The position numbers were made by a program, and so were the translations under genes. Positions 4,634 to 55,649 of a stretch of DNA of 64,000 bases are shown piece by piece. The DNA comes from a virus: the IMG/VR virus record IMGVR_UViG_2974791491_000001, positions 5,026 to 69,025 of that record. One strand, given 5' to 3'. Each line of letters opens with the position of its first letter. Positions within the stretch are counted from its first letter, which is position 1. Under the pieces are notes generated by a model. It was not told where the DNA came from and did not search any database. It was given only the letters and a program-made list of their open reading frames with translations.

Positions 4634-5593
4634 ATGACTTTTAACGCAGTCAAGGTTGAGAAGCTTGCCAGTTACGGCTTGGAGCTGTTGCAGCGCCAGA
4701 TCGTTCTCCCGTCGCGGATTACCATTAAGAGTGGTGCCGAGTTCCAGGGTGCGCTTGGCGATGCCATCACTATCAAGATCGGTGCCCGCACCAAGGCTCG
4801 TCGGGCCAAGATCCGTCCCGCTACCGAAGCGGAACGTCAGATCCAGTTCTCGGATCTGAGTGAGCAGAAGACTCACGTCACTCTGACCGACCGTATCTAC
4901 TCGGCTGTTGGCCTTGAGGATGAAAAGGCGAAGTTGGACGTCGAGGACGTCTTCTCGCAGGTTGTTGCCCCTCAGGTCCGCGCTATTGCGGTCGACTACG
5001 AGAACCTGTTGGCGGAAGAGATTGCGGGTGCCCCGTACAAGCACGTTGTGCCTGTCGACCCGGATCACCCCTACGAGGCTTTCGTTGAGGCTAACCGTCT
5101 CTTGGGTCTGTCGTTCGTTCCGGACGAGAACCGCACCCTGTTGGTTGGTGCGAACTTCGAGGCTGCTCTTCGGAAGAGCCCGCAGTTCATTGCCGCGACC
5201 AGCGCTGGTGACGCTATCGCTTCGAGCCTGTTGGCGCGTGCGACCCTCGGCACCATCAACGGCTACACCGTTGTTAAGAGCTACGCTCTGCCGGCCAATG
5301 AGGCTTACATCATCCACAAGAGTGCGTTCAGCTCTGCGTGGTTGGCTCCTGTCGTCCCTGACGGCGCTAGCTGGGGTAAGTCGATTGGCTTGGGTGGCGA
5401 GACCGGCATTTCGCTGACCTGGTTGAAGGATTACGACTTCATGGTTGGCCGCGACCGTTCGCTCCTGCACTTCTACACCGGCGTCAACACCACGATTGAC
5501 GAGCCGGACGTGAATGCGGACAACGAGATTGTTGCTGCTGGTGGCTTCCTGCGTGCGGTGAAGCTGGTTCTGCCGGGTGACACGAGCGCCTGA
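4634..5593 (+). CDS. major capsid protein
   Basis: 319 aa ORF after scaffold, strong RBS context, typical size and position for an HK97-like capsid subunit. Confidence 0.65.
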   Translation: MTFNAVKVEKLASYGLELLQRQIVLPSRITIKSGAEFQGALGDAITIKIGARTKARRAKIRPATEAERQIQFSDLSEQKTHVTLTDRIYSAVGLEDEKAKLDVEDVFSQVVAPQVRAIAVDYENLLAEEIAGAPYKHVVPVDPDHPYEAFVEANRLLGLSFVPDENRTLLVGANFEAALRKSPQFIAATSAGDAIASSLLARATLGTINGYTVVKSYALPANEAYIIHKSAFSSAWLAPVVPDGASWGKSIGLGGETGISLTWLKDYDFMVGRDRSLLHFYTGVNTTIDEPDVNADNEIVAAGGFLRAVKLVLPGDTSA

Positions 5594-9258: not shown

Positions 9259-12200
9259 ATGGCTGAGAAGTTTTCGATCGGTGATGCGGTCCTTAACATT
9301 GTCCCCTCGCTTGATGAGTTCAAGGAGCGGCTTGATAGCCAGCTTAAGGCGTACCGGGAGTATTTCGATGTAGTTATCCGCCCGGATATGGACCAGTTTT
9401 TCACTAAGCTGGAATCCGACGTTAAGGCTGCTGCGGCTGCTGCTGGCGGGGACGTCAAGGTTACGGCTGATACGTCTCAGGCTCAGGCCGAGATTGCTGC
9501 TACGAAGGCTGCTGTTGAGCAGGCTGGCGGCGAGGTCAAGATCGAGGCTGATGCTTCTCAGGCACTTGCGGAGGCTGCTGCTACTAAGGCGGCGATTGAG
9601 TCGACGTCTGCGGAGATGGACGTCCGGATTGACACGGCCGAGTTGCGCGAGGCTTTGTCGATGGCCCGTGAAGAGGCCGATATCCGCCGCGATATTGCGA
9701 TGGCCCGTGAGATGGCTAACGCGGCTGCGGAAGAGGATGAGCGCAAGGCTGCCGCCAAGATGGAGCAGAACCTTCGCCGGGAGCTTAGCTCTCGTCAGTT
9801 GATCGTTCAGGCGTTGCGTGCCGCTAATGACGTCGAGGGTATGTCGTCTCAGGAGCGCGAGTCGGCTATGCGTCGGATTCGGGCTGCTGAGCAGGAGATT
9901 GCTCGGGATAAGGCTCGTGCTCGTGTCGATACGAACATGTCGAACGAGGATCTGCTTAACGCTTTGCGGTCTGAGTCTGTGTTGCGGTCGGAGATTGCTC
10001 GGGCTCGTGCTTCTGGTGATGAGGCTGGGCTGACTGCTGCTCGTGAAGAGCTGGGTATCCGCCAGGAGTTGGAGCGTGCTGAGCGTGCTCGGGCTCGTGC
10101 TGCGGCACCTAAGGAGAAGGAAGCTCGGGACGCGCTTACTGCTGAGCAGAAGTTGCAGGCTGAGCGTTCGGCTGCGGCCGGCAAGTGGGCTGAGGATCGC
10201 CGTAAGGAACGTGAGCGTCGTGAGGCTGCCGAGGCTAAGGAGGCGTCCAAGAAGGTCGACCTGTCGGCTGCTGAGGCTGCGATTGTGGCGTTGCAGGCCG
10301 AGATTGATGCCCTGTCGGGCGATATCGAGGTTGGCGCGGACACTGATGAAGCTCGCATGCGGATCGCTGTCCTTGAGGAACGTATCCGGTTGCTGCGTTC
10401 GGATCTTCGGATCGGTGCGGACACGGTCGAGGCTCGTGCTCGGGTAGCGATTCTGGCGGCTCAGATCCGCGCTATGAAGGCGGATATCCGGGTTGGTGCG
10501 GACACTCGTGACGCTGCTGAGGAAGTGGACGATTTCGAGGCCCGCTTCCGCGTGGTGCAGTCGTTCCAGGGTGTGAATCTGTTCTCGCTGGGCAACATCA
10601 CTTCGGCGATTGTCGGTATCGGAACGATTATCGGCTTGCTGGGTGGTGTGGTGGCTGCGGCCGGCGCGGCGGCTACGTCGTTGGGTGCGATGGGCGGCGC
10701 TGTCGCTATCGGCTCTAGTGGCGTTTTCGGGGCGTTCAATGAGCTTCGGGCACAGAACCAGCCGGGGGCTCAAAACTCTGGGCAGCAGGCCGTACAGGCG
10801 ATGCGGGAGCAGCGTGAGGCTGTCCAGCGTGTCGCTGACGCTCAGCAGAACTTGCGTAATGCGTCTTCGGACTTGGCGTCGGATCAGGACCGGTTGCGTG
10901 ATGCGACCAAGGATGCGACTCGTGAGATTCGGGATCAGCGTCTTGAGCTTGAGGATGCCCGTCTGGCGCAGGAGGGTTCGGCTATCGCCGTTGCCCGCGC
11001 TAAGGAGAACTACACCGAGGTTAAGCGTCGGTTTGATCGTGGTGAGGCTTCGGCCCTGGACTTGCAGGAGGCGGACCTTCGGGTTCGCAGTTCGCAGTCC
11101 CGGTTGCGGTCGTCGCAGAACAACCTTTCGGATACCCGTGAGGAAACCCGGACGGTTGTGCGGAACGGTGTGGCCAACAACCCCAACGTGGTCGCTGCTC
11201 GTGCTGGTGTCGCTGACGGTATCGACCGGGTGGCTAAGGCTCGTCGAGAGCTGAATGATGCGCGCACCGATGCTTCGGCTGCGGTTGCGGGCGCTGGTGT
11301 GGATCGCTTCACGCAAGCTATGGCTCGGTTGTCGCCTAACGCTCAGGACTTTGTGACTAAGGTCCGATCTTTGGGTGGTGCGTGGACTGATCTTCGGATG
11401 GCTACGCAGGATGCTTTGTTCGCTGGTTTCGGTGACACGTTCACTGACGTGGCGTCTAAGCAGATGCCTGAGTTGCAGCGCGGCATGGTGCAGTTGGCTG
11501 GGGTTGCTAATACGGTGTTGTCGGATTCGCTTCGGCGGGTGTCGGCCACGTTTAGCGAGTTCACTGCTAATGGTACGTCTGCGGCGTTCTTTGATGCGGT
11601 TGCTGCTTCGTTCTCGGGGTTCGCCCCGTTTGTGGAGTCGCTTGTCCGTGTGCTTACTGAGCTGACCATCGGTATGGGTCCCCAGTTGGGTGTGTTCTTC
11701 GAGGATCTGGGCCAGTTCCTAGAGAATCAGGCCCCAATGTGGACTCGCATGGGTTCGCAGGTGCTCGGCGTTATGTCGCTTCTGTTGCCGGTGTTCGATC
11801 AGATGTTCCAGGCTCTTGAGCCTGTGTTTTCTGAGGGCTTCGAGCAGATTGTGCGTATCTTCTCGGCTTTGGCTGATGCGTTGTCGGAGAATCAGGGTCC
11901 GCTTACCGAGTTCACGTCCGCGTTGGGCTCGATGATCGTTAATCTGATTAAGGCCGGCAGTGAGCTTATGCCGCTGTTCTTGGGTGTACTTGAGTTCTTT
12001 ATGGACGCCATTTCGGGTATCAACCCGGAAGTGTTGGCGGTCATCTTGGGTTCGGTTATCGCTTTGCGATCGGTGGCTGGCGCGTTTATCGCCGTGGGTA
12101 ACACTGCGGGTCGATTGATTGCTGCTGGCGACTCTTTGGCGCAGGCGTTCGCGTTCTTGCGGCTACTGCCGGGACGTATCGCTGCTAGCTCTATTGGTAT

Positions 12201-31363: not shown

Positions 31364-31572
31364 TGGGCTGGTGGTTTAGACGTCCTAAGCCTGACGAGCT
31401 TGGACGTTGCGCCCACGTCACATGCACGCCTTGGCAGTTGCTAGAGCAAGTGAGTCTCTACAACAGCTCTTACCAAAAGTCTGGCCGGCCTATCGGCTAC
31501 ATGTTCATCCAGAAACGAAGCTGCCTTATGTGTGGCTTCACGGAACTATCTGAGAAGGAAGTACTTTTCTAA
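31363..31572 (+). CDS. hypothetical Cys-containing small protein
   Basis: 69 aa, CAHVTCTPW..CLMCGF. Confidence 0.3.
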   Translation: MGWWFRRPKPDELGRCAHVTCTPWQLLEQVSLYNSSYQKSGRPIGYMFIQKRSCLMCGFTELSEKEVLF

Positions 31573-32450
31573 TGGGTCTGCTCATTGCAGCAATCGTCCT
31601 GTCACTGGTGGTCGCACTGCCGGTGTCGCTCATGCTCCTCGTCAAGAGCCGCTATGACGGTGTCGAGGTCGGTAAGCCTGTCCGCTACGGCGGCGCTCTA
31701 CTGGTCTGGCTGATCGCGCTCTCCCCTGTCATCTTCGGTTCGGTCACCACCGTCTCCACCAAGAACATCGGTGTCGTGACCGCCTTCAATCGTCCGACCG
31801 GCGAGAACCTGTCCAACGGCCTGCACTTCAAGGCCCCGTGGGAGAAGGTCCACGAGATGGACGGCGCTATCCAGATCCAGACCAAGGACGGCGAGCATTC
31901 CACCCAGGTCCGGTTGGGCAACAACTCGATGGCGAACGTCGACTACACGGTGCAGTGGCGAATCAAGCCGGATGCCGCGTCGGCGCTCTACCTGGATTAC
32001 CGCTCGTTCGACTCGGTTAAGGAAAACCTGGTCACCAAGCAGTTCAACAACTCGCTGTCCGACGTGATGAGCCAGTACAACCCGCTGGCCGCACTGGAAG
32101 AGCAGCAGGCCGACACCAACGAGGCTCTGGCTAAGCGTGTTCTGGATCTGATGCGTGAACGTGTCGGCAACCGTATCGAGGTCATGTCGGTGATGCTGCC
32201 GGTCATCCATTTCGACCCGGACACCCAGGGCAAGATCAACCAGTTCAATGCGGAGCTGGCGAACACCAAGGTTGCGTTGCAGAAGCAGGCCACCGCTTCG
32301 GCTGAGGCTAAGGCGAACGAGAACCTTAAGTCGTCGGTTACCGACCCCAACGTTCTGGTCTCGAAGTGCCTGGATATCGCGGCGCAGAACAAGACGTCTC
32401 CTGCTGGTTGCTGGCCGGGTAGCAGCACTCACATCACTGGCGTCAAGTAG
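31572..32450 (+). CDS. SPFH/band-7 (stomatin-prohibitin-like) membrane protein
   Basis: N-terminal TM helix, second TM, then ..GVVTAFNRPTGENLSNGLHFKAPWEKVHEMDGAIQIQTKDGEH.. typical SPFH core; coiled-coil C-terminus. Confidence 0.5.
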   Translation: MGLLIAAIVLSLVVALPVSLMLLVKSRYDGVEVGKPVRYGGALLVWLIALSPVIFGSVTTVSTKNIGVVTAFNRPTGENLSNGLHFKAPWEKVHEMDGAIQIQTKDGEHSTQVRLGNNSMANVDYTVQWRIKPDAASALYLDYRSFDSVKENLVTKQFNNSLSDVMSQYNPLAALEEQQADTNEALAKRVLDLMRERVGNRIEVMSVMLPVIHFDPDTQGKINQFNAELANTKVALQKQATASAEAKANENLKSSVTDPNVLVSKCLDIAAQNKTSPAGCWPGSSTHITGVK

Positions 32451-45969: not shown

Positions 45970-46313
45970 AACTGCGTGTCGAGTATGAAATTCCGGAGGA
46001 TCAGCACGAGCGGGTGCGGTTGCAGGCGAAGCTTTCGGAGCTGGATTCGTTGCTGTCGTGGGTGGAGCCGTGGAAGCGGACTATCAGCCTGATTGACGAC
46101 AGCCCACTACCGGCTTGCGCGACCGAGATGAAGCGTAGGCACCCGGAGCCGATTTGCGGTAGCTGTCGTGAGCCGATCCAGGCAACCGAATGGTGGGGTT
46201 ACCACCAACGCTTGCACTCGTACGTGCACCTGAACGCCCCCTGCTGGCACAACCTGTACGGGGAGGACGTCAGCGGCCACACCATGATGCTCGGTTCGGG
46301 GGTGCCCGCGTGA
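45966..46313 (+). CDS. hypothetical Cys-rich protein
   Basis: 115 aa, CGSCREP..CWHN. Confidence 0.3.
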   Translation: MKLRVEYEIPEDQHERVRLQAKLSELDSLLSWVEPWKRTISLIDDSPLPACATEMKRRHPEPICGSCREPIQATEWWGYHQRLHSYVHLNAPCWHNLYGEDVSGHTMMLGSGVPA

Positions 46314-47242
46314 CATTCCTAGTTGCTATGCGGGGCCTTCCCGGATCAGGCAAGACCACCCGTGCCCGCGAGATAGCTAAGGAGACCGGGGCTGTCGTTG
46401 TCGGCCGCGACTTCGAGCGGTTCCAGATGTTTGGGGAGTGGTGGACCGGCAAGAACGAGCATGAAAATGCCGTGACAGTTGCGCTCAACGCTAAGGTCCG
46501 GGCGCTGCTTAAGGACGATCAATCCGTGGTCGTCGATAACACCCACGTTCAGCTTCGCCTCCTCAAAGCCTGGGCCAAGATTGCGTCCGAATGTGGAGCC
46601 ACCTTCCACGTCGAGGACGTCAAGACGCCAGTCGAAACCTGCTTGTACCGGGACATGCAGCGGCAAGCCAACGGCGAGCGCTGGGTTGGTGAAGACGTCA
46701 TCAACCGGATGGCTAAGCAGATCAATTGGGGGCAGATTAAGCCGGTCCCGCCGATCATTGTTGAGCCTCTGCGCTACCAGGAAACCCCCTGGGACGCCGA
46801 TGCCGCGATCATTGTCGACATCGACGGCACCCTCGCTCACATGCGGGAGGTCAACGGCACGGTTCGTAGCCCGTACGACTACAGCCGTGTTCACGAGGAC
46901 GCGGCCGATCCGACCATCGTCAGCATTGTCTACGACTACAAGAACGCGCTGAACGGCACAGTAATCGTCTGCTCTGGCCGGGACGACGACTGCCGAGACG
47001 TTACCGAACAGTGGTTGAAGAGCCACAGTATCCCGTTCGACATGCTGCTGATGCGACCAGAGGATGCGCGGGACGCGAACGGCAACAAACTCCCGGACTG
47101 GATCGTTAAGTACAACCTGTTCAACGAGCACATTCGCGGCCAGTACGCGATCGACTATGTGCTCGATGACCGCAACCAGGTTGTGAACATGTGGCGAGCG
47201 CTCGGGCTTAAGTGCCTGCAAGTTCAGCCGGGAGACTTCTGA
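46310..47242 (+). CDS. pnkp: polynucleotide kinase-phosphatase (P-loop kinase + HAD phosphatase)
   Basis: GTG 46310 (GTGA overlap). Walker A GLPGSGKTT; C-terminal IIVDIDGTLAH (DxDGT HAD motif). Confidence 0.6.
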   Translation: MTFLVAMRGLPGSGKTTRAREIAKETGAVVVGRDFERFQMFGEWWTGKNEHENAVTVALNAKVRALLKDDQSVVVDNTHVQLRLLKAWAKIASECGATFHVEDVKTPVETCLYRDMQRQANGERWVGEDVINRMAKQINWGQIKPVPPIIVEPLRYQETPWDADAAIIVDIDGTLAHMREVNGTVRSPYDYSRVHEDAADPTIVSIVYDYKNALNGTVIVCSGRDDDCRDVTEQWLKSHSIPFDMLLMRPEDARDANGNKLPDWIVKYNLFNEHIRGQYAIDYVLDDRNQVVNMWRALGLKCLQVQPGDF

Positions 47243-47514
47243 TGGCCGAACCGAATGTCATCGAACTCAAGTCCGAAAGCGGAAAGGTCATCACCTTCCT
47301 GCACCCTTTCGAGCCGGGTGAAGCCGAAATGGTTTTGTCCGAGCTGAAAACACTTCGGGGCGGGTTTGACCAGATGATTGACGACCTCGAAAAGCGGGTC
47401 GAGAAGCTGCGCGTGGAAGGGCTCATGGAGCCGAGCGTTGTTGTCTCACTCGATGAATACCGGGCACGTAAGGCCGCTAAGGCGAGTGCTCTTGAACCTA
47501 AGGATATTGGTTGA
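47242..47514 (+). CDS. hypothetical protein
   Basis: ATGA-coupled to pnkp; 90 aa. Confidence 0.35.
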   Translation: MAEPNVIELKSESGKVITFLHPFEPGEAEMVLSELKTLRGGFDQMIDDLEKRVEKLRVEGLMEPSVVVSLDEYRARKAAKASALEPKDIG

Positions 47515-48818
47515 TTCTCGACGCACCTAAGAACAATAACTATGCCGTGACCGTTGTGCGTGTCCCGGCTACCTACGATCTGGATGGCTTGGACAACCTG
47601 GTGGGTGTCAAGGTGTTCAATTCGCAGATCCTCACTCAGCGTGACGGGGTGGAGCCGGGTGAGCTTCGCCTGTACTTCCCGGCCGAGGTCCAGATTTCGC
47701 CCGAGTACGCCGAGTACAACAGCCTGTACAGCGGTGGCGCTGGCCGCAATCGTGACCCGGAAGCCAAGGGCTACCTGGCTAAGAACCGCCGCGTGCGGGC
47801 AATCAAGCTGCGCGGTCACCGTTCGGATGCGCTGCTGATGCCGCTCGACTCGCTCAAGTGCTTCACTGGCCGCTACGACTACCTGCAAGAGGGCGACACG
47901 TTCGACGTGATCGAGGGTCACGAGGTTGTCCGCAAGTACGAGCTTCCCCGCAATGAGCCCAAGGCCGGCGCAACCAAGCTCGCTAAGGTCCTTAAGCGGG
48001 TGGACAAGGCCCTGTTCCCTGAGCATCTGTCGACCGACAACTTCTTCCGCAACTCGCACCTGATCGACGAGAAGCGTGAGGTGGTCATCACCCAGAAGTT
48101 GCACGGCACGAGCATCCGTGTCGGCCGTGTTCCGGTTCGCCGCGAGAAGGGCCGCTGGGAACGTTTCCTCAACAGCCTGGGCGCGGCTAGCCCGGACTTT
48201 GCTCACGAGCCGGTGTTCGGCTCCCGCAAGGTCATCAAGGAGGCCGACAACAGTCGCCAGAACCACTACTACGGTTCGGACATTTGGACCCGGAAGGGCG
48301 CGGAGATTGTCGCGGACATTCCGGACGGCTTCATTGTCTACGGCGAACTGATCGGTTGGACCGAGGACGGTTCGCCGTTGCAGAAGGGCTACACCTACGA
48401 CGTGCCTAAGGGGCAGTCGGAGTTGTACGTGTACCGGGTTGCGCGGATCGACGTCAACCGGACGCTCACGGATCTGCCTTGGGATGGCGTTAAGCAGTTC
48501 TGCAAGGAACGCGGCTGGAAGTATGTTCCGGAGATTTACCGGATTATCCCCGAGGATGAGGTCGACTACGTAGGCGTTGACCTGGATCACCACGTCACGA
48601 CGCTGATGGACGTGCGTTACGCCGACGAGTTCAGGAACCTTCAAGGGGTTACAGACAAGATGGTCCCCCTTTCGGACGCTAAGACTGTCGATGAAGGTGT
48701 GTGCATCCGTCAGGACGCAATTACCCCGGTCATTCTCAAGGCTAAGTCCCCTAAGTTCTTGCAGCACGAGACCAAGCAGCTCGATAAGGGCGAAGTCGAC
48801 TTGGAGAGCGCAGCCTAG
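47511..48818 (+). CDS. ATP-dependent RNA ligase-like nucleotidyltransferase (Rnl5/DraRnl-like)
   Basis: Candidate motif I ITQKLHGTS (Lys ~197 after ~190 aa N-domain), ..IVYGELIGW.., motif V-like VILKAKSPKF. Confidence 0.45.
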   Translation: MILDAPKNNNYAVTVVRVPATYDLDGLDNLVGVKVFNSQILTQRDGVEPGELRLYFPAEVQISPEYAEYNSLYSGGAGRNRDPEAKGYLAKNRRVRAIKLRGHRSDALLMPLDSLKCFTGRYDYLQEGDTFDVIEGHEVVRKYELPRNEPKAGATKLAKVLKRVDKALFPEHLSTDNFFRNSHLIDEKREVVITQKLHGTSIRVGRVPVRREKGRWERFLNSLGAASPDFAHEPVFGSRKVIKEADNSRQNHYYGSDIWTRKGAEIVADIPDGFIVYGELIGWTEDGSPLQKGYTYDVPKGQSELYVYRVARIDVNRTLTDLPWDGVKQFCKERGWKYVPEIYRIIPEDEVDYVGVDLDHHVTTLMDVRYADEFRNLQGVTDKMVPLSDAKTVDEGVCIRQDAITPVILKAKSPKFLQHETKQLDKGEVDLESAA

Positions 48819-49009
48819 TGCAGAACGGGCAAACGCAGTGTTACGTGGCATTCCCCGGCCACCAATTTGACGTGGAATCCTTGCGCTTCGCATACGACCA
48901 CCTGATTGGCATGGGAGTTCCGCGCACCCGAAAACTGACCATCGAATCCGTCCCCAAAGTGGGAGACGAGAAGTGCGATGGGATCGCATTTGTGGAGGTA
49001 GTTCCGTGA
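48818..49009 (+). CDS. hypothetical small protein
   Basis: 63 aa, GTG start overlapping TAG. Confidence 0.25.
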   Translation: MQNGQTQCYVAFPGHQFDVESLRFAYDHLIGMGVPRTRKLTIESVPKVGDEKCDGIAFVEVVP

Positions 49010-49848
49010 CCGTTCACCTGTGGGCGCAAAGCCTCGACGACAAAGAGCTACACCCCGTTCACCCATTCCAGTTCCCTGGCGGCGAATGGCACATCACCCT
49101 CGGTGAACCGTTCGACCAGAGCCGCGACTACCAGTGGATCGCCAACGTTCAAGGTGCTAGTGCCGAAGACCTCGTGGTGGCAACCCTGCTAGCGGACATT
49201 GCGATGGACCGTGGTGAGGACTCGACACTGCTCATCCCCTACCTGCCTGCTGCACGGGCAGACCGGGGTGTCCCCCTTGGGCTTAGCGTGTACGGCGGCA
49301 TCATCAACGCCGCATGCTTCACCGAGGTAGTCACGCTCGATGCGCACAACCCTAAGGCTGCGGTGCGGGAAGTGAGTGGGCTCGTCAACCTGTCTCCCAC
49401 GCCTTTGGTGACCGCGACCATCCAGTATCACGACACGTTCACCGGGGTTATCGCCCCGGACGCGGGTGCTCGTCAACGCGCCGCCGACGTGGCTACCTCA
49501 CTCGGTGTGCCCCTGGTGGTGGCCGACAAGGAGCGGGACTTCGCCACCGGCCAGATCATGGGCCTGACGGTCCCGGACCTCGACCGGCTGGGTAACTACC
49601 TGGTGGTCGATGACATTTGTGACGGCGGCGGCACCTTCATGGCTCTCGCTAGTGCCACGAACCTGCCGCAAGACCGGCTGTCCCTGTGGGTCACGCACGG
49701 CATCTTCTCGGGTAACGCGGCCAACCTGCTCAAGCACTACTACAAGGCCGTCTACACCACCGACTCTCACCCCGGTTCGGGGCAGCTCGGCATGTGGACG
49801 GTCAAAACCCCCACGTGGGCATACATGTACAGAAAGGTCCAAGCATGA
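49006..49848 (+). CDS. ribose-phosphate pyrophosphokinase (PRPP synthetase)-like protein
   Basis: GTG 49006 with GGAGG 8 nt upstream; PRTase/PRPP-binding loop NYLVVDDICDGGGTF. Confidence 0.55.
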   Translation: MTVHLWAQSLDDKELHPVHPFQFPGGEWHITLGEPFDQSRDYQWIANVQGASAEDLVVATLLADIAMDRGEDSTLLIPYLPAARADRGVPLGLSVYGGIINAACFTEVVTLDAHNPKAAVREVSGLVNLSPTPLVTATIQYHDTFTGVIAPDAGARQRAADVATSLGVPLVVADKERDFATGQIMGLTVPDLDRLGNYLVVDDICDGGGTFMALASATNLPQDRLSLWVTHGIFSGNAANLLKHYYKAVYTTDSHPGSGQLGMWTVKTPTWAYMYRKVQA

Positions 49849-51326
49849 CCAAGTTCGCACCCGTAGCAGCGCTCTTCCAGACCGACGCCTACAAGCTCGG
49901 GCACGTTCAGCAGTACCAGTTGGCCGGCGAGGTCACTAAGGTCTACTCGAATTACACCAACCGTAAGAGCCGGCTGCCCGGTGTCGACAAGGTTGTGCAC
50001 TTCGGATTGCAGGCGTTCATCCAGAAGAACCTTGTGGAGGCTTTCGAGCCGTTCTTCGCGGCCGACGAAGACCTGGTGTGCAACCTGTACGAGGAGCGGG
50101 TTGAGCAGATCCTTGGCCCGAACACCATCGGGTCGGATCACATTCGGGCATTGCACCGTAAGGGCTATCTGCCGCTGCGGTTCTGCGGCCTGCCGGAAGG
50201 CACTGAGGTTCCGATCAAGGTTCCGTCGTTCACGGTCGAGAACACCGAGGATGAGTTCTTCTGGCTGACCAACTACATCGAGACGGCGCTTAGCGCTGGT
50301 GTATGGCAGGCATCCACGTCCGCCACGATTGCCCGCCAGTACCGGAAGATCCTCGACGAGGCCGCGCTTAACACTGGCGCTTACCCGTTGGCTGTCGACT
50401 TCCAGTGCCACGACTTCTCTTACCGGGGAATGAGTTCCAATGAATCTGCCCAAGCCTCGGGTGCGGCGCACCTCCTATCGTTTAGTGGGACGGACTCTCT
50501 GGTCGCTCTCGATTGGATTGACCGCTACTACGGAGGTTCGGATTACGTTGCGGCGTCAGTCCCGGCGACAGAGCACTCCGTCATGTGCACCGGCATTGAA
50601 GCCGTCGGAGAGCTTGAGCTCTTTTCGCGCCTACTTGACCTCTACCCGTCGGGAATTGTCTCCGTCGTTTCGGACACCTTCGACCTATGGACGGTCCTGA
50701 CCGAGTTTCTGCCTGCACTTAAGGACAAGATCCTGGCGCGTGACGGCAAGCTGGTGATCCGTCCGGACTCGGGCGACCCGGAGACCATCATCTGCGGAGA
50801 CCCGGATGCCGAGGCAGGGTCCGCCGCCTGGTTTGGTGTCGTCCGGCTGCTTCGGATGGCTTTTGGTTGCACCTGGAATGAGGCCGGCTACCGCGAGTTG
50901 AACTCGCATGTGGGGGTCATCTACGGCGACTCCATCACCCTCGAACGCGCTAAGAGCATCACGGCGCGACTCGAATCTATGGGTTACGCATCCACCAACG
51001 TTGTGTTTGGTGTCGGCTCATACACCTACCAGCACAACACCCGCGACACGTTCGGCTCCGCGATGAAGGCCACATGGGCTGAGGTCGACGGTGACGGCGT
51101 CAACCTGCTTAAGGACCCGATCACTGATGACGGCACTAAGAAGTCGGCTACGGGGCGTCTGGCGGTCGTCAACAGCGAGTACGGCGGAGACCTCAAGCTC
51201 ATCGAACGAGCAACCCCCGAAGCCGAGCAGTGGAGCCTCCTCAAGCCCATCTGGGAAAACGGACAGTTCGTACAGCGAGTTACCTTCGCCGATGTACGGC
51301 GCACCCTGGCTAACGCGGGGGCTTGA
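49845..51326 (+). CDS. nicotinamide phosphoribosyltransferase (NAMPT/NadV)-like protein
   Basis: N-terminal ..FQTDAYKLGHVQQYQ.. and central ..CHDFSYRGMSS.. (DFGxRG-like) motifs; ATGA overlap with the upstream gene. Confidence 0.6.
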   Translation: MTKFAPVAALFQTDAYKLGHVQQYQLAGEVTKVYSNYTNRKSRLPGVDKVVHFGLQAFIQKNLVEAFEPFFAADEDLVCNLYEERVEQILGPNTIGSDHIRALHRKGYLPLRFCGLPEGTEVPIKVPSFTVENTEDEFFWLTNYIETALSAGVWQASTSATIARQYRKILDEAALNTGAYPLAVDFQCHDFSYRGMSSNESAQASGAAHLLSFSGTDSLVALDWIDRYYGGSDYVAASVPATEHSVMCTGIEAVGELELFSRLLDLYPSGIVSVVSDTFDLWTVLTEFLPALKDKILARDGKLVIRPDSGDPETIICGDPDAEAGSAAWFGVVRLLRMAFGCTWNEAGYRELNSHVGVIYGDSITLERAKSITARLESMGYASTNVVFGVGSYTYQHNTRDTFGSAMKATWAEVDGDGVNLLKDPITDDGTKKSATGRLAVVNSEYGGDLKLIERATPEAEQWSLLKPIWENGQFVQRVTFADVRRTLANAGA

Positions 51327-51327
51327 G

Positions 51328-51636
51328 TTGGCTGACGGTAGCTGGTGGGCCTTGGAGAATCCGGGCCAATACTCCATCGGGGCAATCAAGCACCACCACA
51401 TACCTGGCGAAACGATGTATCACTGGGGTTCGGACGCTATTGACTACCTTAGGGTTCCGAAATCCCTGACGCTCATCGAGCTAACCAACGACCGGACAAC
51501 GACCGCGCTCACCGCCCACACCGACCCGGAAACTAACGAGAGTGTCGTCCTGGCGTACGGCAAAGGGAAGCTTAAAGAGCTAAGCGTCTACCTCGAACAG
51601 AAGCCGGACGCTTTCTCGTGGCGGAAGATTCACTAA
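51328..51636 (+). CDS. hypothetical protein
   Basis: TTG 51328 or ATG 51415; good GC3. Confidence 0.3.
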   Translation: MADGSWWALENPGQYSIGAIKHHHIPGETMYHWGSDAIDYLRVPKSLTLIELTNDRTTTALTAHTDPETNESVVLAYGKGKLKELSVYLEQKPDAFSWRKIH

Positions 51637-51682
51637 GGGAGGTCACCTGAACAACAAGCAGCTCGCGCAAGACAACCTCGTC

Positions 51683-52426
51683 ATGCTCGGCGTTGCCGGT
51701 TCCCAGCTCTACGGGACACAGCTCGACAACGGCGACAACGACCAAATGGGGGTGGCAATCGAGCCCCCAAGCCACGTCATCGGGCTAAGCCAATTCGAGC
51801 AATGGCAGTACCACAGTGCAGGCAACGGCGTCAGGTCCGGAAGCGAAGACCTCGACGTCACCGTGTACTCGCTACGGAAGTGGACCCGGCTAGCGGAACA
51901 GGGCAACCCCACCGTTCTGCTGCTCGGGTTCACCCCCGATGAACTTATCCTCAAGGACTCGTTCTGGGGTATGCAGCTCCGCGCCAGCATGGACATGTTT
52001 ATCTCCCAGCAGGCCGGCTCAAGGTTCCTCGGCTACCTCGACTCCCAGCGGAAGCAGATGCTCGGGCTTACCGGCCGCAAGCACTCCAACCGCCCGGAGT
52101 TGGTTGAGCAGTACGGCTACGACACCAAGTTTGCCTACCACGCCGTAAGGCTCGGCATGCAGGGTGTGGAGTACCTGACCACCGGCCACATGGAACTGCC
52201 CATGAAGCAGGAGTACCGCGACTACCTCATTGACATTCGGCAGGGCCGGGAGTCGAAAGAGGACGTGGTGACGGTTATCAACCTGTACATCGACTTGCTG
52301 CGCAAGCTTAAGCATTCGCCGGATCTGCCGCCTCGGGCTAACCGGGTGGAGATTGATGCGTGGCTTGAGGTCATGTACGAAACGTTCTGGTCGTCGCAGG
52401 GGCGGACGCTCCCCCATGTGGCTTGA
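51683..52426 (+). CDS. minimal nucleotidyltransferase (pol-beta superfamily)
   Basis: ..LGVAGSQLYGTQLDNGDNDQMGV.. GS-x9-DxD signature near N-terminus. Confidence 0.45.
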   Translation: MLGVAGSQLYGTQLDNGDNDQMGVAIEPPSHVIGLSQFEQWQYHSAGNGVRSGSEDLDVTVYSLRKWTRLAEQGNPTVLLLGFTPDELILKDSFWGMQLRASMDMFISQQAGSRFLGYLDSQRKQMLGLTGRKHSNRPELVEQYGYDTKFAYHAVRLGMQGVEYLTTGHMELPMKQEYRDYLIDIRQGRESKEDVVTVINLYIDLLRKLKHSPDLPPRANRVEIDAWLEVMYETFWSSQGRTLPHVA

Positions 52427-52670
52427 CGAGGATTCTGCGGTCAAGTACGTGGGCAGGTCCCGTAGGACTCTGCGCTGGTGGTACCAGATGGGTTTGGTGC
52501 AGCGACGGAAGCACAAAGGGTACTGGCAGTACGAATCCGAAACCCTAGCTGCCGCCAAGGCTAGGCAGGAACACAACTCTGCTACACAGAGGATCGTTCC
52601 GGGCCTTGGTGGTGAGCGGGGCCGGCGTGGTTTCAGGCAACGAGCCCACGGCATGGACCCCTTGTTTTGA
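52416..52670 (+). CDS. small HTH (MerR/excisionase-like) protein
   Basis: ..SAVKYVGRSRRTLRWWYQMGLV.. winged-helix-like. Confidence 0.35.
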   Translation: MWLDEDSAVKYVGRSRRTLRWWYQMGLVQRRKHKGYWQYESETLAAAKARQEHNSATQRIVPGLGGERGRRGFRQRAHGMDPLF

Positions 52671-52739
52671 GGATGGGGGGCGCTGCCAAGTGGTGAGTAA
52701 TCTTTATGGTGTGAATGGTTGATGAACCGTTTGCATCTT

Positions 52740-52811
52740 TCCCGTATAGCTTAATTGGCAGAGCGTCCGGTTGTTACCCGGATGGTCCAGGTTCGATTCC
52801 TGGTGCGGGAG
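52740..52811 (+). tRNA. tRNA-Asn (GTT)
   Basis: Hand-folded cloverleaf: acceptor TCCCGTA/TGCGGGA, anticodon arm TCCGG-TTGTTAC-CCGGA, T-arm CCAGG-TTCGATT-CCTGG. Confidence 0.7.
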
Positions 52812-52927
52812 CTTAGAGTAGATTGTTTCGGCTCCGTTTCGTAGAACACTCAGACGTCAATCCAAACGGGCAGCACTCGAAATCACTTACCCATGTGGGT
52901 GTCACTGGTTCATCGTTCGGGTGATCT

Positions 52928-52998
52928 GGGGCGATAGTTCAGTGGTAGAACGGCGGTCTCCAAAGCCGCTCGCCGGGGTTCGATTCCTCGTCGCCTCG
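52928..52998 (+). tRNA. tRNA-Trp (CCA)
   Basis: Acceptor GGGGCGA/TCGCCTC, D-arm GTTC-AGTGGTA-GAAC, anticodon loop CTCCAAA, T-loop TTCGATT. Confidence 0.7.
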
Positions 52999-53030
52999 CC
53001 GCGCTTGGCTGTGCGCGTAAACAGCTATCT

Positions 53031-53103
53031 GCCTTAGAAACCGAATTGGCTAGGTGCCTGACTTCCAATCAGGATTTTGCGGGTTCAAGTCCCGTCTAAG
53101 GCT
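53031..53103 (+). tRNA. tRNA-Gly (TCC)
   Basis: Perfect acceptor GCCTTAG/CTAAGGC, anticodon arm CCTGA-CTTCCAA-TCAGG, T-arm GCGGG-TTCAAGT-CCCGT; short D-stem. Confidence 0.6.
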
Positions 53104-53196
53104 CAATGGGACGCCAGAGATAAACGCTGGTGCGGTAGAAGCTGACCCGATTCAGAAACCCGCCGATTCCCGATCACCGATGGCTGCCGGTATATG

Positions 53197-53272
53197 CAGT
53201 TTCTAACTCTCCGTAGCTCAGTTGGTCTTAGAGCAGGGCACTCTTAATGCCCGGGTCGCAGGTTCGAGTCCT
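53197..53272 (+). tRNA. tRNA-Lys (CTT)
   Basis: Acceptor CTCTCCG/CGGGGAG, D-arm GCTC-AGTTGGTCTTA-GAGC, anticodon arm GGGCA-CTCTTAA-TGCCC, T-loop TTCGAGT. Confidence 0.7.
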
Positions 53273-53345
53273 GCCGGGGAGACGTAGTGGGAGACGGGGG
53301 TTCGATTCCCTCCATGCGCGCTGTAGCTTAATGGTAGAGCACCCA
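53273..53345 (+). ncRNA. tRNA-like fragments (3'-half-like T-arm/acceptor piece followed by 5'-half-like acceptor/D-arm piece)
   Basis: GGGAGACGGGGGTTCGATTCCCTCCA then GCGCTGTAGCTTAATGGTAGAGCA; no complete cloverleaf can be folded. Confidence 0.3.
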
Positions 53346-53528
53346 CGCTTTGCAAATATGTTCCGGATGGCCCGCTCAAGGGATACGGCGCATAGAGCTA
53401 AGAGGTTGTAAGCCCGCAAAGCCCAACCCTTAGTCTCCGCAGGTTCGCCACCGAACTACCTGCGTTATCAAAACCCACGTGAATTGAGGCCGAAGGGCTG
53501 GTGGGCCTTAGTTGGAAGGGTGGACCCA

Positions 53529-53611
53529 AGGGCTTATGGCGGAATTGGCAGACGCGCCGGATTCAAAATCCGGTACTCATTGAGTGTGTGGGTTCGAGTC
53601 CCACTAAGCCC
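53529..53611 (+). tRNA. tRNA-Leu (CAA), long variable arm
   Basis: Acceptor GGGCTTA/TAAGCCC, anticodon arm CCGGA-TTCAAAA-TCCGG, 14-nt variable arm, T-arm GTGGG-TTCGAGT-CCCAC. Confidence 0.65.
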
Positions 53612-53613
53612 AC

Positions 53614-53826
53614 ATGGAAAACACTGACATTCACAATCGGTTCGCCTTCCACCCGGCCACCACGGCTGAAAAGAAGGGCGCTCACGGCAGTATCCGCGAG
53701 ACCATGCTGTCGACCGCGCTCTACGTGAACGCTAACGTTCCGGACGGCCGCGAAAAGTCACTGGCTATCACTGCTCTCGAAGAGGCGATGTTCTGGGCTA
53801 ACGCGGCCATCGCACGAGTGGTCTAG
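53614..53826 (+). CDS. hypothetical small protein
   Basis: 70 aa, starts 3 nt after tRNA-Leu. Confidence 0.3.
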   Translation: MENTDIHNRFAFHPATTAEKKGAHGSIRETMLSTALYVNANVPDGREKSLAITALEEAMFWANAAIARVV

Positions 53827-54065
53827 TGGCAATCGTTCTGGGGGTCGGCGATGTCGACAAGATCACCGATCCCGGACACCTGGAAGCGCTCAGACGCCTC
53901 GAAATGATCGCCGCCTACACGCTTGCGGTTGACGATCCGGACTACGAGGCGCGTGACGTGAACGCTATGGCACTTAGCGGTGCGTGGGCGACTCCCGCGT
54001 ACCAACCATCCGAAATTGGCTCCAAGGCTGGAAAGAAGCTGCGGGCCATGTATTCCAAGAAGTAG
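53826..54065 (+). CDS. hypothetical small protein
   Basis: GTG start overlapping TAGTG. Confidence 0.3.
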   Translation: MAIVLGVGDVDKITDPGHLEALRRLEMIAAYTLAVDDPDYEARDVNAMALSGAWATPAYQPSEIGSKAGKKLRAMYSKK

Positions 54066-54074
54066 GAGAATCCT

Positions 54075-54467
54075 TTGGGTTTCCGTGATCTGTTTACTCC
54101 CCGCACCAAGCGTCAGAAGAAGGCTAAGGGCAAGGGTGAGCAGTTGGGCCGCGCGATCGGCGAACTGAGCGTGAGCGCTCAGGACTTCACCGTATCTCGG
54201 CTTGACACCATCACTCCCCGTACCTACGGCAAGAGCCCGGTCTCTTCGGTTCCGGCTGTCAAGACTCGTCCTGCGATCCAGCCTCGGCCGGCCGCTAAGC
54301 CTCGTAGCTACGACCGACCCAGTTACTCGGGCTATGACGACAGCTCTGCTGCGATCAGTGCTGCTACTGCTGTTGCGGTGTCGTCCAGCTACTCGTCGCC
54401 TTCGTACAGCTCGTGCGATTCCAGCTCGTCTAGCTCGTTCTCGTCCGATGCGGGCTGCTCGTTCTGA
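54075..54467 (+). CDS. hypothetical protein with Ser-rich C-terminus
   Basis: TTG start with GGAG RBS; basic N-terminus, SSYSSPSYSSCDSSSSSSFSS tail. Confidence 0.35.
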   Translation: MGFRDLFTPRTKRQKKAKGKGEQLGRAIGELSVSAQDFTVSRLDTITPRTYGKSPVSSVPAVKTRPAIQPRPAAKPRSYDRPSYSGYDDSSAAISAATAVAVSSSYSSPSYSSCDSSSSSSFSSDAGCSF

Positions 54468-54640
54468 TGTTTGAAGCCATCATCGCGGCTTTCTTCATCA
54501 CCCTACTCGTGGGGTTGTTCGTGGGCTTCGTCTACTGGATGCTCAATCCGCCGTCCTGGGTTGGCGGTGGCGGAACCTATAAGGGCGGGTTCGATCTGAG
54601 TTCGCCGCAAGGTGTTGCCCTACTGGTGGCCGCAACGTGA
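54467..54640 (+). CDS. small membrane protein (below ORF-track threshold)
   Basis: ATGA overlap; MFEAIIAAFFITLLVGLFVGFVYWML.. single TM; a second 33-aa TM peptide may follow (54637-54738). Confidence 0.3.
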   Translation: MFEAIIAAFFITLLVGLFVGFVYWMLNPPSWVGGGGTYKGGFDLSSPQGVALLVAAT

Positions 54641-54781
54641 TAACGACCATCCTCGGCGGGATCGGCGCTATCGCGCTTCTGTATGTGCTCGGTTACATAC
54701 TCATCGGGGCTTGGTGCCTTTGGAGCCTAGGTCGATGATCTATTGGGTTTGGTCACGTTCCCTCATCTAAACGTGACGCTA

Positions 54782-54863
54782 CTAGGTGATGCTCCAATGG
54801 CGGGGCAGCGGGCTGTAACCCCGTGGCGTTATACGCAGGCAGGTTCGATCCCTGTCACCTAGA
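54782..54863 (+). tRNA. tRNA-Tyr (GTA), long variable arm
   Basis: Perfect acceptor CTAGGTG/CACCTAG, anticodon arm GCGGG-CTGTAAC-CCCGT, variable arm, T-arm GCAGG-TTCGATC-CCTGT. Confidence 0.6.
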
Positions 54864-55101
54864 CAATTCACCTTCTTCTACGGGAGACCAACCTAACTCT
54901 GCTCCGTCAGGGGGAAGGTGACCTACCACGCGCCACGGACTGTCACACGCTGATGGTCCGTGGCGCTCTTTTTGTCTAAGAGAGGCTAAGCCATTCAAGG
55001 CGAACAGCTTGTAGACGGGCGCTGTGTGCGTTCGGAGCTTCTACCCGAACAGTGCTGGTGCAAACACCACCGAAACCTTGAGGAAGTGCAGGTAACAATC
55101 C

Positions 55102-55434
55102 TTGACTGAGCCGAACGATTACACCGAGCATTACGGCTATACCCTCGTCGCTGAGGTTGAAGCGTACGAATGCTATAGCTGGGACAATGCGGGGGTCTTC
55201 TACGATCCCGACCACAATGCTTACCGTGTGGCTGCTGATGGCGGTTGTTCGTGTAACTACCCGTGGGATCGGAAGGACACCATTTCTGAGTGCCCGCCTG
55301 TTGGTTTGGCTGAGGCTATTCAGCAGTTCCGTAAGGCCGCTAAGGACCTGTTCCATCCGGCTAGTTACGAAACAATCGAGGAAGAGCTTCGGGGCCTACG
55401 TGCACACGCCAAGAAGGTTGGTGCCCGCCCGTGA
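55102..55434 (+). CDS. hypothetical protein
   Basis: 110 aa. Confidence 0.3.
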   Translation: MTEPNDYTEHYGYTLVAEVEAYECYSWDNAGVFYDPDHNAYRVAADGGCSCNYPWDRKDTISECPPVGLAEAIQQFRKAAKDLFHPASYETIEEELRGLRAHAKKVGARP

Positions 55435-55649
55435 CCCATCTCGAAACTAAGGCCACCTACAACGATCCCGATGGCGAGTTCGAGGATGACCTCCGCTTGG
55501 AGCTGCTTAACAAGTATCTCCTGCAAGGATACGACTCTACCCAACTCTACTTCGAGGATTTCACCGGCCATTTCATCAATGGCGTGTTTACGCGGACTGA
55601 TAACCCGGAGTCTGGGTTCACGGTCATTAAGGTGTCGCTGATCCCATGA
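55431..55649 (+). CDS. hypothetical protein
   Basis: 72 aa, GTGA overlap. Confidence 0.3.
   Translation: MTHLETKATYNDPDGEFEDDLRLELLNKYLLQGYDSTQLYFEDFTGHFINGVFTRTDNPESGFTVIKVSLIP

Follow-up and report, generated by a model that had tools for sequence, protein, structure and literature searches.

The six-tRNA cluster of Gordonia phage Kudefre: codon demand, an exceptional tRNA-Gly(UCC) and a neighbouring tRNA-like element

Introduction

What purpose is served by the transfer RNA (tRNA) genes of phages is an old question, to which the competing answers are codon supply and escape from tRNA-targeting immunity. The 64,000-nucleotide stretch of viral DNA analysed here (the window; positions 5,026 to 69,025 of IMG/VR record IMGVR_UViG_2974791491_000001, so that a window coordinate is the record coordinate minus 5025, as checked across all 64,000 bases) raises this question through a cluster of six tRNA genes lying near genes for RNA repair. 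Bases 51500-55500 of the window correspond, with 100% identity over the full length, to Gordonia phage Kudefre (NC_060136), whose host is Gordonia terrae 3612 and which is temperate, with gp6 as its tyrosine integrase and with an immunity repressor. The related phages comprise Sephiroth, Syleon and Octobien14 (genus Octobienvirus), together with Trax, Neville and Rabbitrun (genus Nevillevirus).

The six-tRNA cluster is genuine, previously annotated (the GenBank record of Kudefre already has the six tRNAs, as genes 97-101 and 106) and ordinary for an actinophage. Codon and amino-acid demand explains four of the six tRNAs more simply than defence does, and the chances seem to us about even that supply and demand is the main driver of the cluster. 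The parts that merit experiment are the paradoxical tRNA-Gly(UCC), the swapping of tRNAs in particular slots and an orphan tRNA-like element. The Kudefre locus leaves the question of phage tRNAs unsettled, but it is a compact natural test case, offering seven close phages that share a host strain, a core of fixed tRNAs (Gly, Lys and Leu), swappable slots (Trp, His, Tyr, Gln and Asn), an adjoining full tRNA-repair set and a tRNA-Gly(UCC) which contradicts the codon explanation and yields a specific biochemical prediction.

Results and Discussion

Six tRNA genes on one strand

ARAGORN, run on the whole window, returned exactly six tRNA genes, all on the + strand and with the same coordinates and anticodons as had been assigned to them in a preliminary description made from the sequence. 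They are listed below together with the terminator that follows them; the scores are those against the Rfam tRNA model RF00005, whose gathering score is 29 bits.

52740..52812, + strand: tRNA-Asn(GUU) (ARAGORN GTT; 66.4 bits; loop UUGUUAC, G73, U1-A72)
52928..53000, + strand: tRNA-Trp(CCA) (ARAGORN; 62.2 bits; loop CUCCAAA, G73)
53031..53104, + strand: tRNA-Gly(UCC) (ARAGORN TCC; 58.7 bits; loop CUUCCAA, acceptor stem GCCUUAG/CUAAGGC, U73)
53207..53283, + strand: tRNA-Lys(CUU) (ARAGORN CTT; 62.9 bits; loop CUCUUAA, C1-G72, A73)
53530..53613, + strand: tRNA-Leu(CAA), type II (ARAGORN; 61.4 bits; loop UUCAAAA, A73)
54782..54864, + strand: tRNA-Tyr(GUA), type II, atypical (ARAGORN GTA; C1-G72, A8, loop CUGUAAC, A73)
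54930..54976, + strand: intrinsic terminator after tRNA-Tyr (terminator scan; stem of 16 base pairs, 10 of them G-C, then TCTTTTTGTC)

Five of the tRNAs match RF00005 at 58.7-66.4 bits (E 3e-12 to 4e-10, model positions 1-71), while tRNA-Tyr falls below the gathering score and has its best match within the clan to tRNA-Sec (33.3 bits, under the threshold of 47 for that model). Bacterial tRNA-Tyr normally has G1-C72, the C1-G72 pair being of archaeal/eukaryal type, and C1-G72 is present in five of the six tRNA-Tyr genes of the subfamily. In the alignment of these six genes, 13 of the 21 pairs of the cloverleaf are kept by changes on both sides; those of Sephiroth, Rabbitrun and Trax pass RF00005 (35.5-42.3 bits), and C38 occurs only in Kudefre, Syleon and Octobien14, the other subfamily genes having A38. 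Several tRNA-Tyr genes of cluster C1 mycobacteriophages (eLife supplement) also start with C and have the loop CUGUAAC. Among the other tRNAs, tRNA-Asn is identical in sequence across all four Octobienvirus phages, and the C1-G72 pair of tRNA-Lys is found in all five versions aligned from the relatives.

On reading the sequences, the type II assignment previously made for Leu and Tyr is borne out by 14-nucleotide (nt) variable arms in both, and a 3' CCA is encoded by none of the six phage tRNAs, which must therefore rely on enzymatic CCA addition; the Gordonia gene for tRNA-Gly(UCC) (locus L054, 7190-7263), unlike them, does encode CCA. The discriminator bases are G73 in Asn and Trp, U73 in Gly (with G1-C72 and C2-G71) and A73 in Lys, Leu and Tyr. 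Judged by textbook identity elements, these bases and the anticodons appear to fit the assigned amino-acid identities, the exceptions being C1-G72 in Tyr and C3-G70 in Gly. A scan for sigma-70 promoters returned zero sites.

Codon demand

Kudefre has a G+C (GC) content of 58.5% and a third-position GC content (GC3) of 0.70, whereas Gordonia has about 66% GC and, in our chromosomal sample, a GC3 of 0.865. In order to measure demand, codons were summed per decoding tRNA (44 decoders) and the decoders were ranked by the phage-minus-host difference per 1000 codons. Two host samples were used: 74 open reading frames (ORFs) from 12 chromosomal loci, these being orthologous neighbourhoods of one locus in 12 species that do not include G. 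terrae 3612, and 51 genes from the G. bronchialis plasmid pGBRO01. The Mycobacterium smegmatis codon table (eLife supplement), in which the amino-acid frequencies looked atypical, was replaced by these Gordonia sequences as host proxy.

Against the chromosomal sample, the six decoders with the largest excess per 1000 are Leu-CAA (+12.9), Lys-CUU (+12.1), Trp (+9.9), Phe (+9.5), Asn (+9.1) and Tyr (+8.3), so that five of the six phage tRNAs are among them (hypergeometric probability about 3e-5). The plasmid genes put Lys-CUU first, Asn third, Tyr fourth, Leu-CAA fifth, Trp 25th and Gly-UCC 40th; when the samples are pooled, the four leading places among the 44 decoders go to Lys-CUU, Leu-CAA, Asn and Tyr. 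An excess demand is therefore found in two independent samples for these four and in one for Trp; when genes were bootstrapped, three to four of the six tRNAs stood in the top six in all 500 replicates. The Lys-AAG, Leu-UUG, Asn and Tyr codons are commoner by 9-18 per thousand in the phage than in Gordonia genes. TTG is the top Leu codon in the phage structural genes (34%, 28 per 1000; in Gordonia 9%, 6.8 per 1000), and Lys, Asn and Tyr make up a larger share of phage than of Gordonia proteins. The two largest excesses (AAG and UUG) match the most conserved tRNAs of the phage group, Lys-CUU and Leu-CAA being among the tRNAs common to all seven phages.

In the explanation we prefer, the six tRNAs, without encoded CCA, form a co-oriented operon closed by a strong terminator, whose main job would be to top up the decoders that are needed far more by phage than by host messenger RNAs. 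Lys-AAG, Leu-UUG, Asn and Tyr are the codons in excess, and exactly those tRNAs are supplied. In this view the tRNAs would be expressed, would receive their CCA from the enzyme of the host and their amino acids from its synthetases, and would be limiting when phage messages are translated.

Several points weigh against this explanation. For Trp the outcome turns on the choice of host genes (rank 3 with the chromosomal ones, 25 with those of the plasmid), and Gly-UCC ranks 38-44 of 44 by every measure: GGA, at 3.4-6.2 per 1000 in the phage and 10.5-13.5 in Gordonia, is the codon most avoided. Two tRNAs carried by relatives, His (Syleon, Trax and Neville) and Gln-CUG (Trax, Neville and Rabbitrun), have zero excess demand in Kudefre usage, and the phage does not supply Leu-UAG, Ile-CAU, Val-UAC and Gln-UUG, the decoders whose relative excess is largest. 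A ratio-based mean-rank statistic gives a weaker signal (P = 0.03 for structural genes, 0.07-0.12 otherwise). The host samples are small, and the measure of absolute excess was picked after the data had been seen, so that the small P values are indicative only. Codon-compensating sets of phage tRNAs are the classical view, reportedly that of Bailly-Bechet et al. (2007). As in such sets, the Kudefre tRNAs decode phage-favoured codons in a phage with a GC content below that of its host; unlike in them, Gly-UCC decodes the most-avoided codon and the decoders in largest relative excess go unsupplied. Additionally, in cluster C1 mycobacteriophages no link between tRNAs and codons was found (PMC10264068).

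tRNA sets of the related phages

The tRNAs for Gly, Lys-CUU and Leu-CAA are kept in all seven phages, across two genera, tRNA-Gly(UCC) being nearly unchanged in all of them; tRNA-Asn is found only in the four Octobienvirus phages, which bear the integrase. Other positions vary. The slot of tRNA-Trp in Kudefre is occupied by tRNA-His in Syleon and by a tRNA with an 8-nt loop in Sephiroth, and the Lys of Syleon and the Tyr of Sephiroth are different alleles. In these single relatives Trp, Lys or Tyr has been replaced wholesale (48-78% identity), with adjoining tRNAs and spacers at 98-100%, although the phages that differ in this way are otherwise 94-96% identical and infect the same host strain. 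Between Kudefre and Octobien14 the whole block, spacers included, is about 99% identical and the flanking genes 71-92%, which points to a recently exchanged cassette. The retention of Gly-UCC, the carriage of His and Gln-CUG and the exchange of slots fit selection by something other than codon usage.

The 8-nt-loop tRNA of Sephiroth (locus L002, 2930-3004; anticodon read as 'ccag', 34.7 bits with RF00005) may be either a gene in decay or a decoder of four-base codons.

The tRNA-Gly(UCC) paradox

If codon demand does not account for tRNA-Gly(UCC), its acceptor stem may offer a clue. FaRel2, a tRNA-Gly-specific antiphage toxSAS, reads G1-C72, C2-G71, G4-C69 and Pu5-Py68 (PMC11559606). The Gordonia tRNA-Gly(UCC), with the acceptor stem GCGGGUG/CACCCGC, has all four determinants, and the phage tRNA keeps only G1-C72 and C2-G71, lacking those at 4-69 and 5-68. 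The two pairs that it keeps are also identity pairs for glycyl-tRNA synthetase. The sequence would thus suit a tRNA that escapes a toxin of the FaRel2 type, although stems are expected to diverge by drift in any case, and drift might produce this pattern as well.

Another explanation may lie in superwobbling, by which an unmodified U34 lets one tRNA read all four GGN codons; superwobbling of Gly-UCC would serve the large excess of GGY codons in the phage structural genes.

Neighbouring repair and counter-defence genes

The preliminary description placed the cluster immediately after the RNA-repair genes, by which it meant Pnkp and a ligase. Those two end 5.5 and 3.9 kilobases (kb) upstream (they lie 3.9-6.4 kb from the tRNAs, with a two-gene module for reconstituting nicotinamide adenine dinucleotide (NAD) in between), and the placement is correct for a repair gene that was left unnamed, that of RlaP, 314 nt upstream. 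The order on the + strand is Pnkp, RNA ligase, PRPS-like, Nampt-like, a small unknown gene, RlaP, a small DNA-binding-like gene and the tRNAs, and further genes lie inside the cluster:

46310..47242, + strand: gp88, polynucleotide kinase-phosphatase (Pnkp), end-healing (Pfam HAD_PNKP 4.7e-46, AAA_33 6.3e-23; PHROG polynucleotide kinase 5e-97; annotated so)
47511..48818, + strand: gp90, ATP-dependent RNA ligase, sealing (Pfam RNA_ligase PF09414 4.8e-13; PHROG RNA ligase 2e-107)
49006..49848, + strand: gp92, PRPS-like, candidate Adps of NARP1 (PHROG ribose-phosphate pyrophosphokinase 1.6e-69; PDB PRPS down to 2.5e-12)
49845..51326, + strand: gp93, Namat-type nicotinamide ADP-ribose transferase of NARP1 (PDB 9W5X/9W5W 1.9e-138)
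51683..52426, + strand: gp95, RlaP-family Pol-beta nucleotidyltransferase, the rebuilding step (Pfam RlaP PF10127 1.6e-27)
52416..52670, + strand: gp96, small DNA-binding-like protein (PHROG DNA binding protein 7e-7; helix-turn-helix in the annotation of relatives)
53614..53826, + strand: gp102, 70 residues, Acb2/Tad1 family (Pfam Acb2_Tad1_hairpin 7.6e-20; PDB 'Acb2 homolog 43' 2e-4, Tad1 0.012)
53826..54640, + strand: gp103-gp105, three small ORFs between tRNA-Leu and tRNA-Tyr (annotation)

By their domains, Pnkp, RlaP and the RNA ligase are predicted to make up a complete set for healing, rebuilding and sealing RNA. In gp88 a P-loop kinase domain (N-terminal) is joined to a HAD phosphatase domain (C-terminal); gp90 has an N-terminal OB-like domain (a weak match to the OB of PHA02142), and a PDB sequence search gave no match for either the ligase or RlaP. 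The assignment of gp95 to RlaP by Pfam led us to reject it as a CCA-adding enzyme or an NMN adenylyltransferase. RlaP adds 1-2 nt to damaged RNA 3' ends and is needed for the aminoacylation of over-damaged tRNA (PMC12776372), and phage RlaP has been predicted to rebuild, before ligation, the nucleotides lost to nucleases such as RloC (PMC7824862). Known systems close to this set are the repair of PrrC-cleaved tRNA-Lys by Pnkp and Rnl1 of T4 and the RNA-repair systems that contain RlaP (PMC7824862, PMC12776372). Kudefre has its kinase-phosphatase, ligase and RlaP on one strand within 6 kb; it differs in that Pfam does not place its ligase with T4 Rnl1 (the match is to PF09414, and there is the N-terminal OB-like domain) and in that its repair genes are split by the NARP1 module.

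This module is the adjoining pair gp92 and gp93, predicted to be that of the NARP1 pathway of NAD+ reconstitution (bioRxiv 10.1101/2024.02.11.579819; PMC13586617) and annotated only as ribose-phosphate pyrophosphokinase and nicotinamide phosphoribosyltransferase. The best structural matches of gp93, 9W5X and 9W5W, are Namat structures (PMC12774641), and its match to true Nampt structures is weaker (about 1e-61). Inside the cluster, gp102 starts 1 nt past tRNA-Leu; annotated as a hypothetical protein, it may serve as a sponge that takes up cyclic-nucleotide immune signals. Both NARP1 and the Acb2/Tad1 family are recognised as counter-defence.

For gp103-gp105 we obtained zero Pfam or PHROG matches. 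The gp104 protein (54075-54467) has a Ser/Tyr-rich low-complexity tail (…SSYSSPSYSSCDSSSSSSFSSDAGCSF) and no family match; gp105 is hydrophobic.

Anticodon loops and a possible counter-defence role

This neighbourhood of tRNA repair and immunity countering makes a second role of the tRNAs, as spares, plausible. In its stronger form, which we regard as rather unlikely, counter-defence is the reason for the cluster: the phage tRNAs would replace host tRNAs that have been cleaved or blocked by toxins, differing from them at the recognition site, with Pnkp, RlaP and the ligase repairing those that are cut. This is close to the preliminary description, which saw phage copies as replacing or repairing host tRNAs cleaved by anticodon nucleases and looked to the anticodon loops for substitutions that evade such nucleases. 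For actinophages the idea is already in print (van den Berg et al. 2023, PMC10264068), and there are experimental cases of nuclease-evading phage tRNAs in T5 (PMC11555353).

In some temperate actinophages attP duplicates the 3' portion of a tRNA gene of the host (PMC10865867), and host loops were taken from such sites; the comparison covers Gly, Lys and Leu. The attP sites of Whitney and Kuwabara gave the core of the host tRNA-Gly(UCC), that of Whitney (L051:4572-4620, reverse strand) being the 3' 49 nt of the G. terrae gene. A genome scan with this 49-mer found 13 Gordonia loci with the full gene, identical in eight species, these loci holding solely tRNA-Gly and tRNA-Pro. Phage and Gordonia tRNA-Gly(UCC) share 22 of 74 positions (ungapped), and their loop is the same, CUUCCAA, which counts against the evasion sought in the preliminary description. 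The attP of RonRayGun (L174:7653-7701, reverse strand) leads to M. smegmatis tRNA-Lys(CUU), with the phage loop CUCUUAA, and that of MiaZeal (L175:2308-2351, reverse strand) to M. smegmatis tRNA-Leu(CAA), with the phage loop UUCAAAA; this last identity is tentative, because positions 32-33 are at the edge of the reported attP core. None of the three comparable loops (Gly against Gordonia, Lys and Leu against M. smegmatis) has a nuclease-evading substitution: they are identical to host-type loops for Gly, for Lys and, tentatively, for Leu, and loops identical to those of host tRNAs are among the refuting results named in the preliminary description.

The nucleases cited in the preliminary description presumably hit other isoacceptors: we take PrrC and PARIS to act on Lys-UUU and VapC-mt11 on Leu-CAG, and the phage has Lys-CUU and Leu-CAA. 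Of the idea of spares and repair, then, the real tRNAs, the repair set and the counter-defence genes on the flanks stand in favour, whereas the loops, the isoacceptors and the codon demand do not. The anti-nuclease reading is thus a known hypothesis that is partly supported here, favoured by context and disfavoured by the loops.

The tRNAs are embedded between the three-enzyme repair set, in which RlaP restores tRNAs that have lost nucleotides (PMC12776372), and anti-defence genes, and both phage genera keep the order RlaP-(YrlA-Ro)-tRNAs; where genes lie in a mosaic phage arm is, however, weak evidence. The swapping of slots among phages of one host strain is unpredicted by codon usage, and Gly-UCC is universal in the group despite the lowest codon demand, with an acceptor stem that keeps only the first two of the four FaRel2 determinants. 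Against this, no nuclease or toxSAS that targets tRNA was identified in G. terrae 3612 (no search aimed at one was made), and four of the six tRNAs are more simply explained by demand. Supply and demand and defence evasion are compatible, and the role of a spare is plausible as the best available reading for tRNA-Gly(UCC).

As in the tRNA-rich region of T5, which evades retron-Eco7, a system targeting tRNA-Tyr (PMC11555353), Tyr and Lys isotypes are clustered in Kudefre and interleaved with small anti-defence genes, an Acb2/Tad1-like gene lying inside the cluster. Kudefre differs in having a Lys isoacceptor with CUU instead of UUU and loops that are host-type where compared. The T5 region reportedly also evades PARIS and PrrC, which are said to target tRNA-Lys; for Gordonia, unlike in the T5 case, we know of no cognate host nuclease.

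Two observations were made while host genes were sought. The attP of Periwinkle (cluster DN1; L049, about 10040-10092), tried as a source of tRNA-Gly, has instead a 3' end resembling that of transfer-messenger RNA (…GGGGTTCGAGTCCCCTTAGCTCCACCA), and Whitney, also of DN1, has that of tRNA-Gly(UCC), so that close relatives use different attB sites. Two Tsukamurella tyrosinosolvens 'plasmids' in PLSDB (NZ_LR134452.1 and NZ_LR134455.1) match housekeeping genes beside the Gordonia tRNA-Gly locus (ribose-5-phosphate isomerase and DsbA family), and these records look like chromosome fragments.

A tRNA-like element between tRNA-Lys and tRNA-Leu

The 246-nt spacer between tRNA-Lys and tRNA-Leu holds an unannotated element with a sub-threshold match to YrlA in Rfam:

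53287..53346, + strand: tRNA-like element of 60 nt, unannotated (Rfam YrlA RF02553, 29.5 bits, E 0.0011)
53347..53529, + strand: rest of the spacer, with several hairpins and no credible ORF

The element consists of GUGGG, a 4-nt variable loop (AGAC), a T arm (GGGGG UUCGAUU CCCUC; 53296-53312), an 11-nt linker that replaces the acceptor stem, UA (U8-A9), a D arm (GCUU AAUGGUA GAGC; 53326-53340), A and CCCAC. The closing stem GUGGG/CCCAC (53287-53291 with 53342-53346) is perfectly complementary, and the structure read from the sequence is also the minimum free energy structure of the isolated segment. The pattern of T arm, 13 nt and D arm is unique in the window and was found in none of 100 shuffles. 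The tRNA-like domain of YrlA has this plan, a tRNA body opened at the anticodon loop and without an acceptor stem (PMC4201824), and the element has the T- and D-like stem-loops with tRNA-type loop sequences that are expected of it. A junction of two tandem tRNAs, the false positive of which Chen et al. (2014) warned, was rejected, the linker between the arms being too short for two acceptor strands by our own count of positions.

In other respects the element departs from YrlA. The 11-nt linker (CAUGCGCGCUG) has no counterpart of the AS hairpin; the GNCGAA(N)G motif, which binds Rsr and would be expected close to the 5' end, was not found, tRNA-Lys lying directly 5' of the element; a Ro60/TROVE gene would be expected on the same strand no more than 4 kb away, but a homologue was found nowhere in Kudefre (best tblastn E 1.7); and 29.5 bits compares with a YrlA gathering score of 69. 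A GCCGAAG at 53489, 3' of the element, was considered as a Ro-binding site and rejected, since the GNCGAAG motif occurs 71 times in the window. As it fails on the AS hairpin, the 5' motif, the Ro linkage and the Rfam threshold, the element is not filed here as YrlA. It is either a YrlA relic or a reduced, Ro-independent derivative.

The comparison with other phages gives this choice its background. The element is present in all four Octobienvirus phages. The sister genus (Trax, Neville and Rabbitrun) has the arrangement RlaP-YrlA-Ro-tRNAs, with a Ro copy in Trax that matches TROVE at 7e-16 and YrlA matches directly upstream of the Ro-like gene in Trax (44.1 bits; L005, 2838-2954) and Rabbitrun (31.5 bits; L007, 2818-2981), so that these Ro-linked copies (31.5-44.1 bits) are under the Rfam threshold too. 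A scan of IMG/VR for the pattern of T arm, short linker and D arm returned 40 contigs, in many of which a mini-hairpin separates the arms, which indicates that such modules are common in phages. Cluster C1 mycobacteriophages (Bxz1, ET08 and Rizal; PMC4201824, PMC10264068) have large tRNA sets together with Ro60 and YrlA, and the sister genus likewise pairs its tRNA cluster with Ro/TROVE and a Y RNA; Kudefre, unlike the C1 phages, has six tRNAs, no Ro gene and a reduced tRNA-like element at a different position.

Neither conservation nor folding energy can tell a relic from a reduced derivative. The Lys-Leu spacer is 98-99.6% identical within the genus, but the other spacers are likewise, and with all spacers of the block at about 99% between Kudefre and Octobien14 we rejected spacer conservation as evidence of function. 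The spacer folds no better than shuffles (z -0.51), and the folding energies of spacer, element and Ro-linked Trax YrlA (z -0.5 to +1.4) are uninformative.

The YrlA matches of Trax and Rabbitrun overlap small 'hypothetical' ORFs (for example Trax gene 93), which are probably mis-calls. At 21 kb from the element, gp53 (31572-32450) is a Band-7/SPFH protein (9e-19); Burroughs and Aravind (2016) reportedly linked SPFH modules and tRNA-like RNA to RNA-repair systems.

A more far-reaching version of counter-defence, which we consider improbable, would take the whole of 46.3-55.0 kb as a tRNA-protection island in which both tRNA-Gly(UCC), by acceptor-stem escape from toxins, and the tRNA-like element act as counter-defence RNAs. 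The toxins evaded would be toxSAS of the FaRel2 type or GNAT toxins, not anticodon nucleases, and the element would be a functional, Ro-independent descendant of YrlA, which might have host Rsr or the repair enzymes as its partner or might be a decoy for proteins that bind by recognising the elbow of tRNA. If true, this would shift attention, as regards the site of evasion in phage tRNAs, from anticodon loops to acceptor stems.

Lysogeny and passenger cassettes as further possible explanations

Since Kudefre is temperate, its tRNAs might complement a host tRNA gene that is disrupted when the phage integrates into it without rebuilding it, a phage tRNA of the same isotype taking over. Established cases of this mechanism come from phages of Gordonia and Mycobacterium (PMC10865867), tRNA-Asn is confined to the integrase-bearing Octobienvirus phages, and the Kudefre attP has arm-type repeats but nothing recognisable as a piece of tRNA, in keeping with a short core. 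We nevertheless judge this explanation highly improbable: it covers at most one of the six tRNAs, Asn being the sole candidate; Trax, Neville and Rabbitrun, which have no integrase match at E 1e-30, yet keep Gly, Lys and Leu; and the longest matches between attP and tRNAs (7-9 nt) are at the level of shuffled tRNAs. As a source of a host tRNA fragment the Kudefre attP was rejected, arm-type repeats alone being found, with zero Rfam hits.

That the tRNA genes are instead passengers, spreading as mobile or recombining units and neutral or decaying, with tRNA-Tyr and the tRNA-like element as relics, agrees with the slot-by-slot replacement and sharp identity breaks at tRNA borders, the degenerate Gln-like copy in a Trax spacer, the 8-nt-loop tRNA of Sephiroth, the homing-type endonuclease VII inside the Syleon block and a tRNA-Tyr under the Rfam threshold, but it has very little probability in view of five tRNAs at 58-66 bits with intact identity elements, a Tyr cloverleaf upheld by compensatory changes, the retention of Gly, Lys and Leu in seven phages of two genera and a tRNA set that fits codon demand far better than chance.

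Two details of the relatives concern such mobility and decay. In Syleon, and there only, an endonuclease VII gene (L003, 4083-4466) lies between the Acb2-like gene and the next small ORF, which suggests homing-type mobility inside the block. The 342-nt Lys-Leu spacer of Trax (L005, 6317-6658) aligns with the tRNA-Gln of Rabbitrun (L007, 6434-6504) and keeps a T-arm-like hairpin; ARAGORN makes no call there, and this is probably a tRNA-Gln in decay. The spacer folds somewhat better than its shuffled versions (z -2.1).

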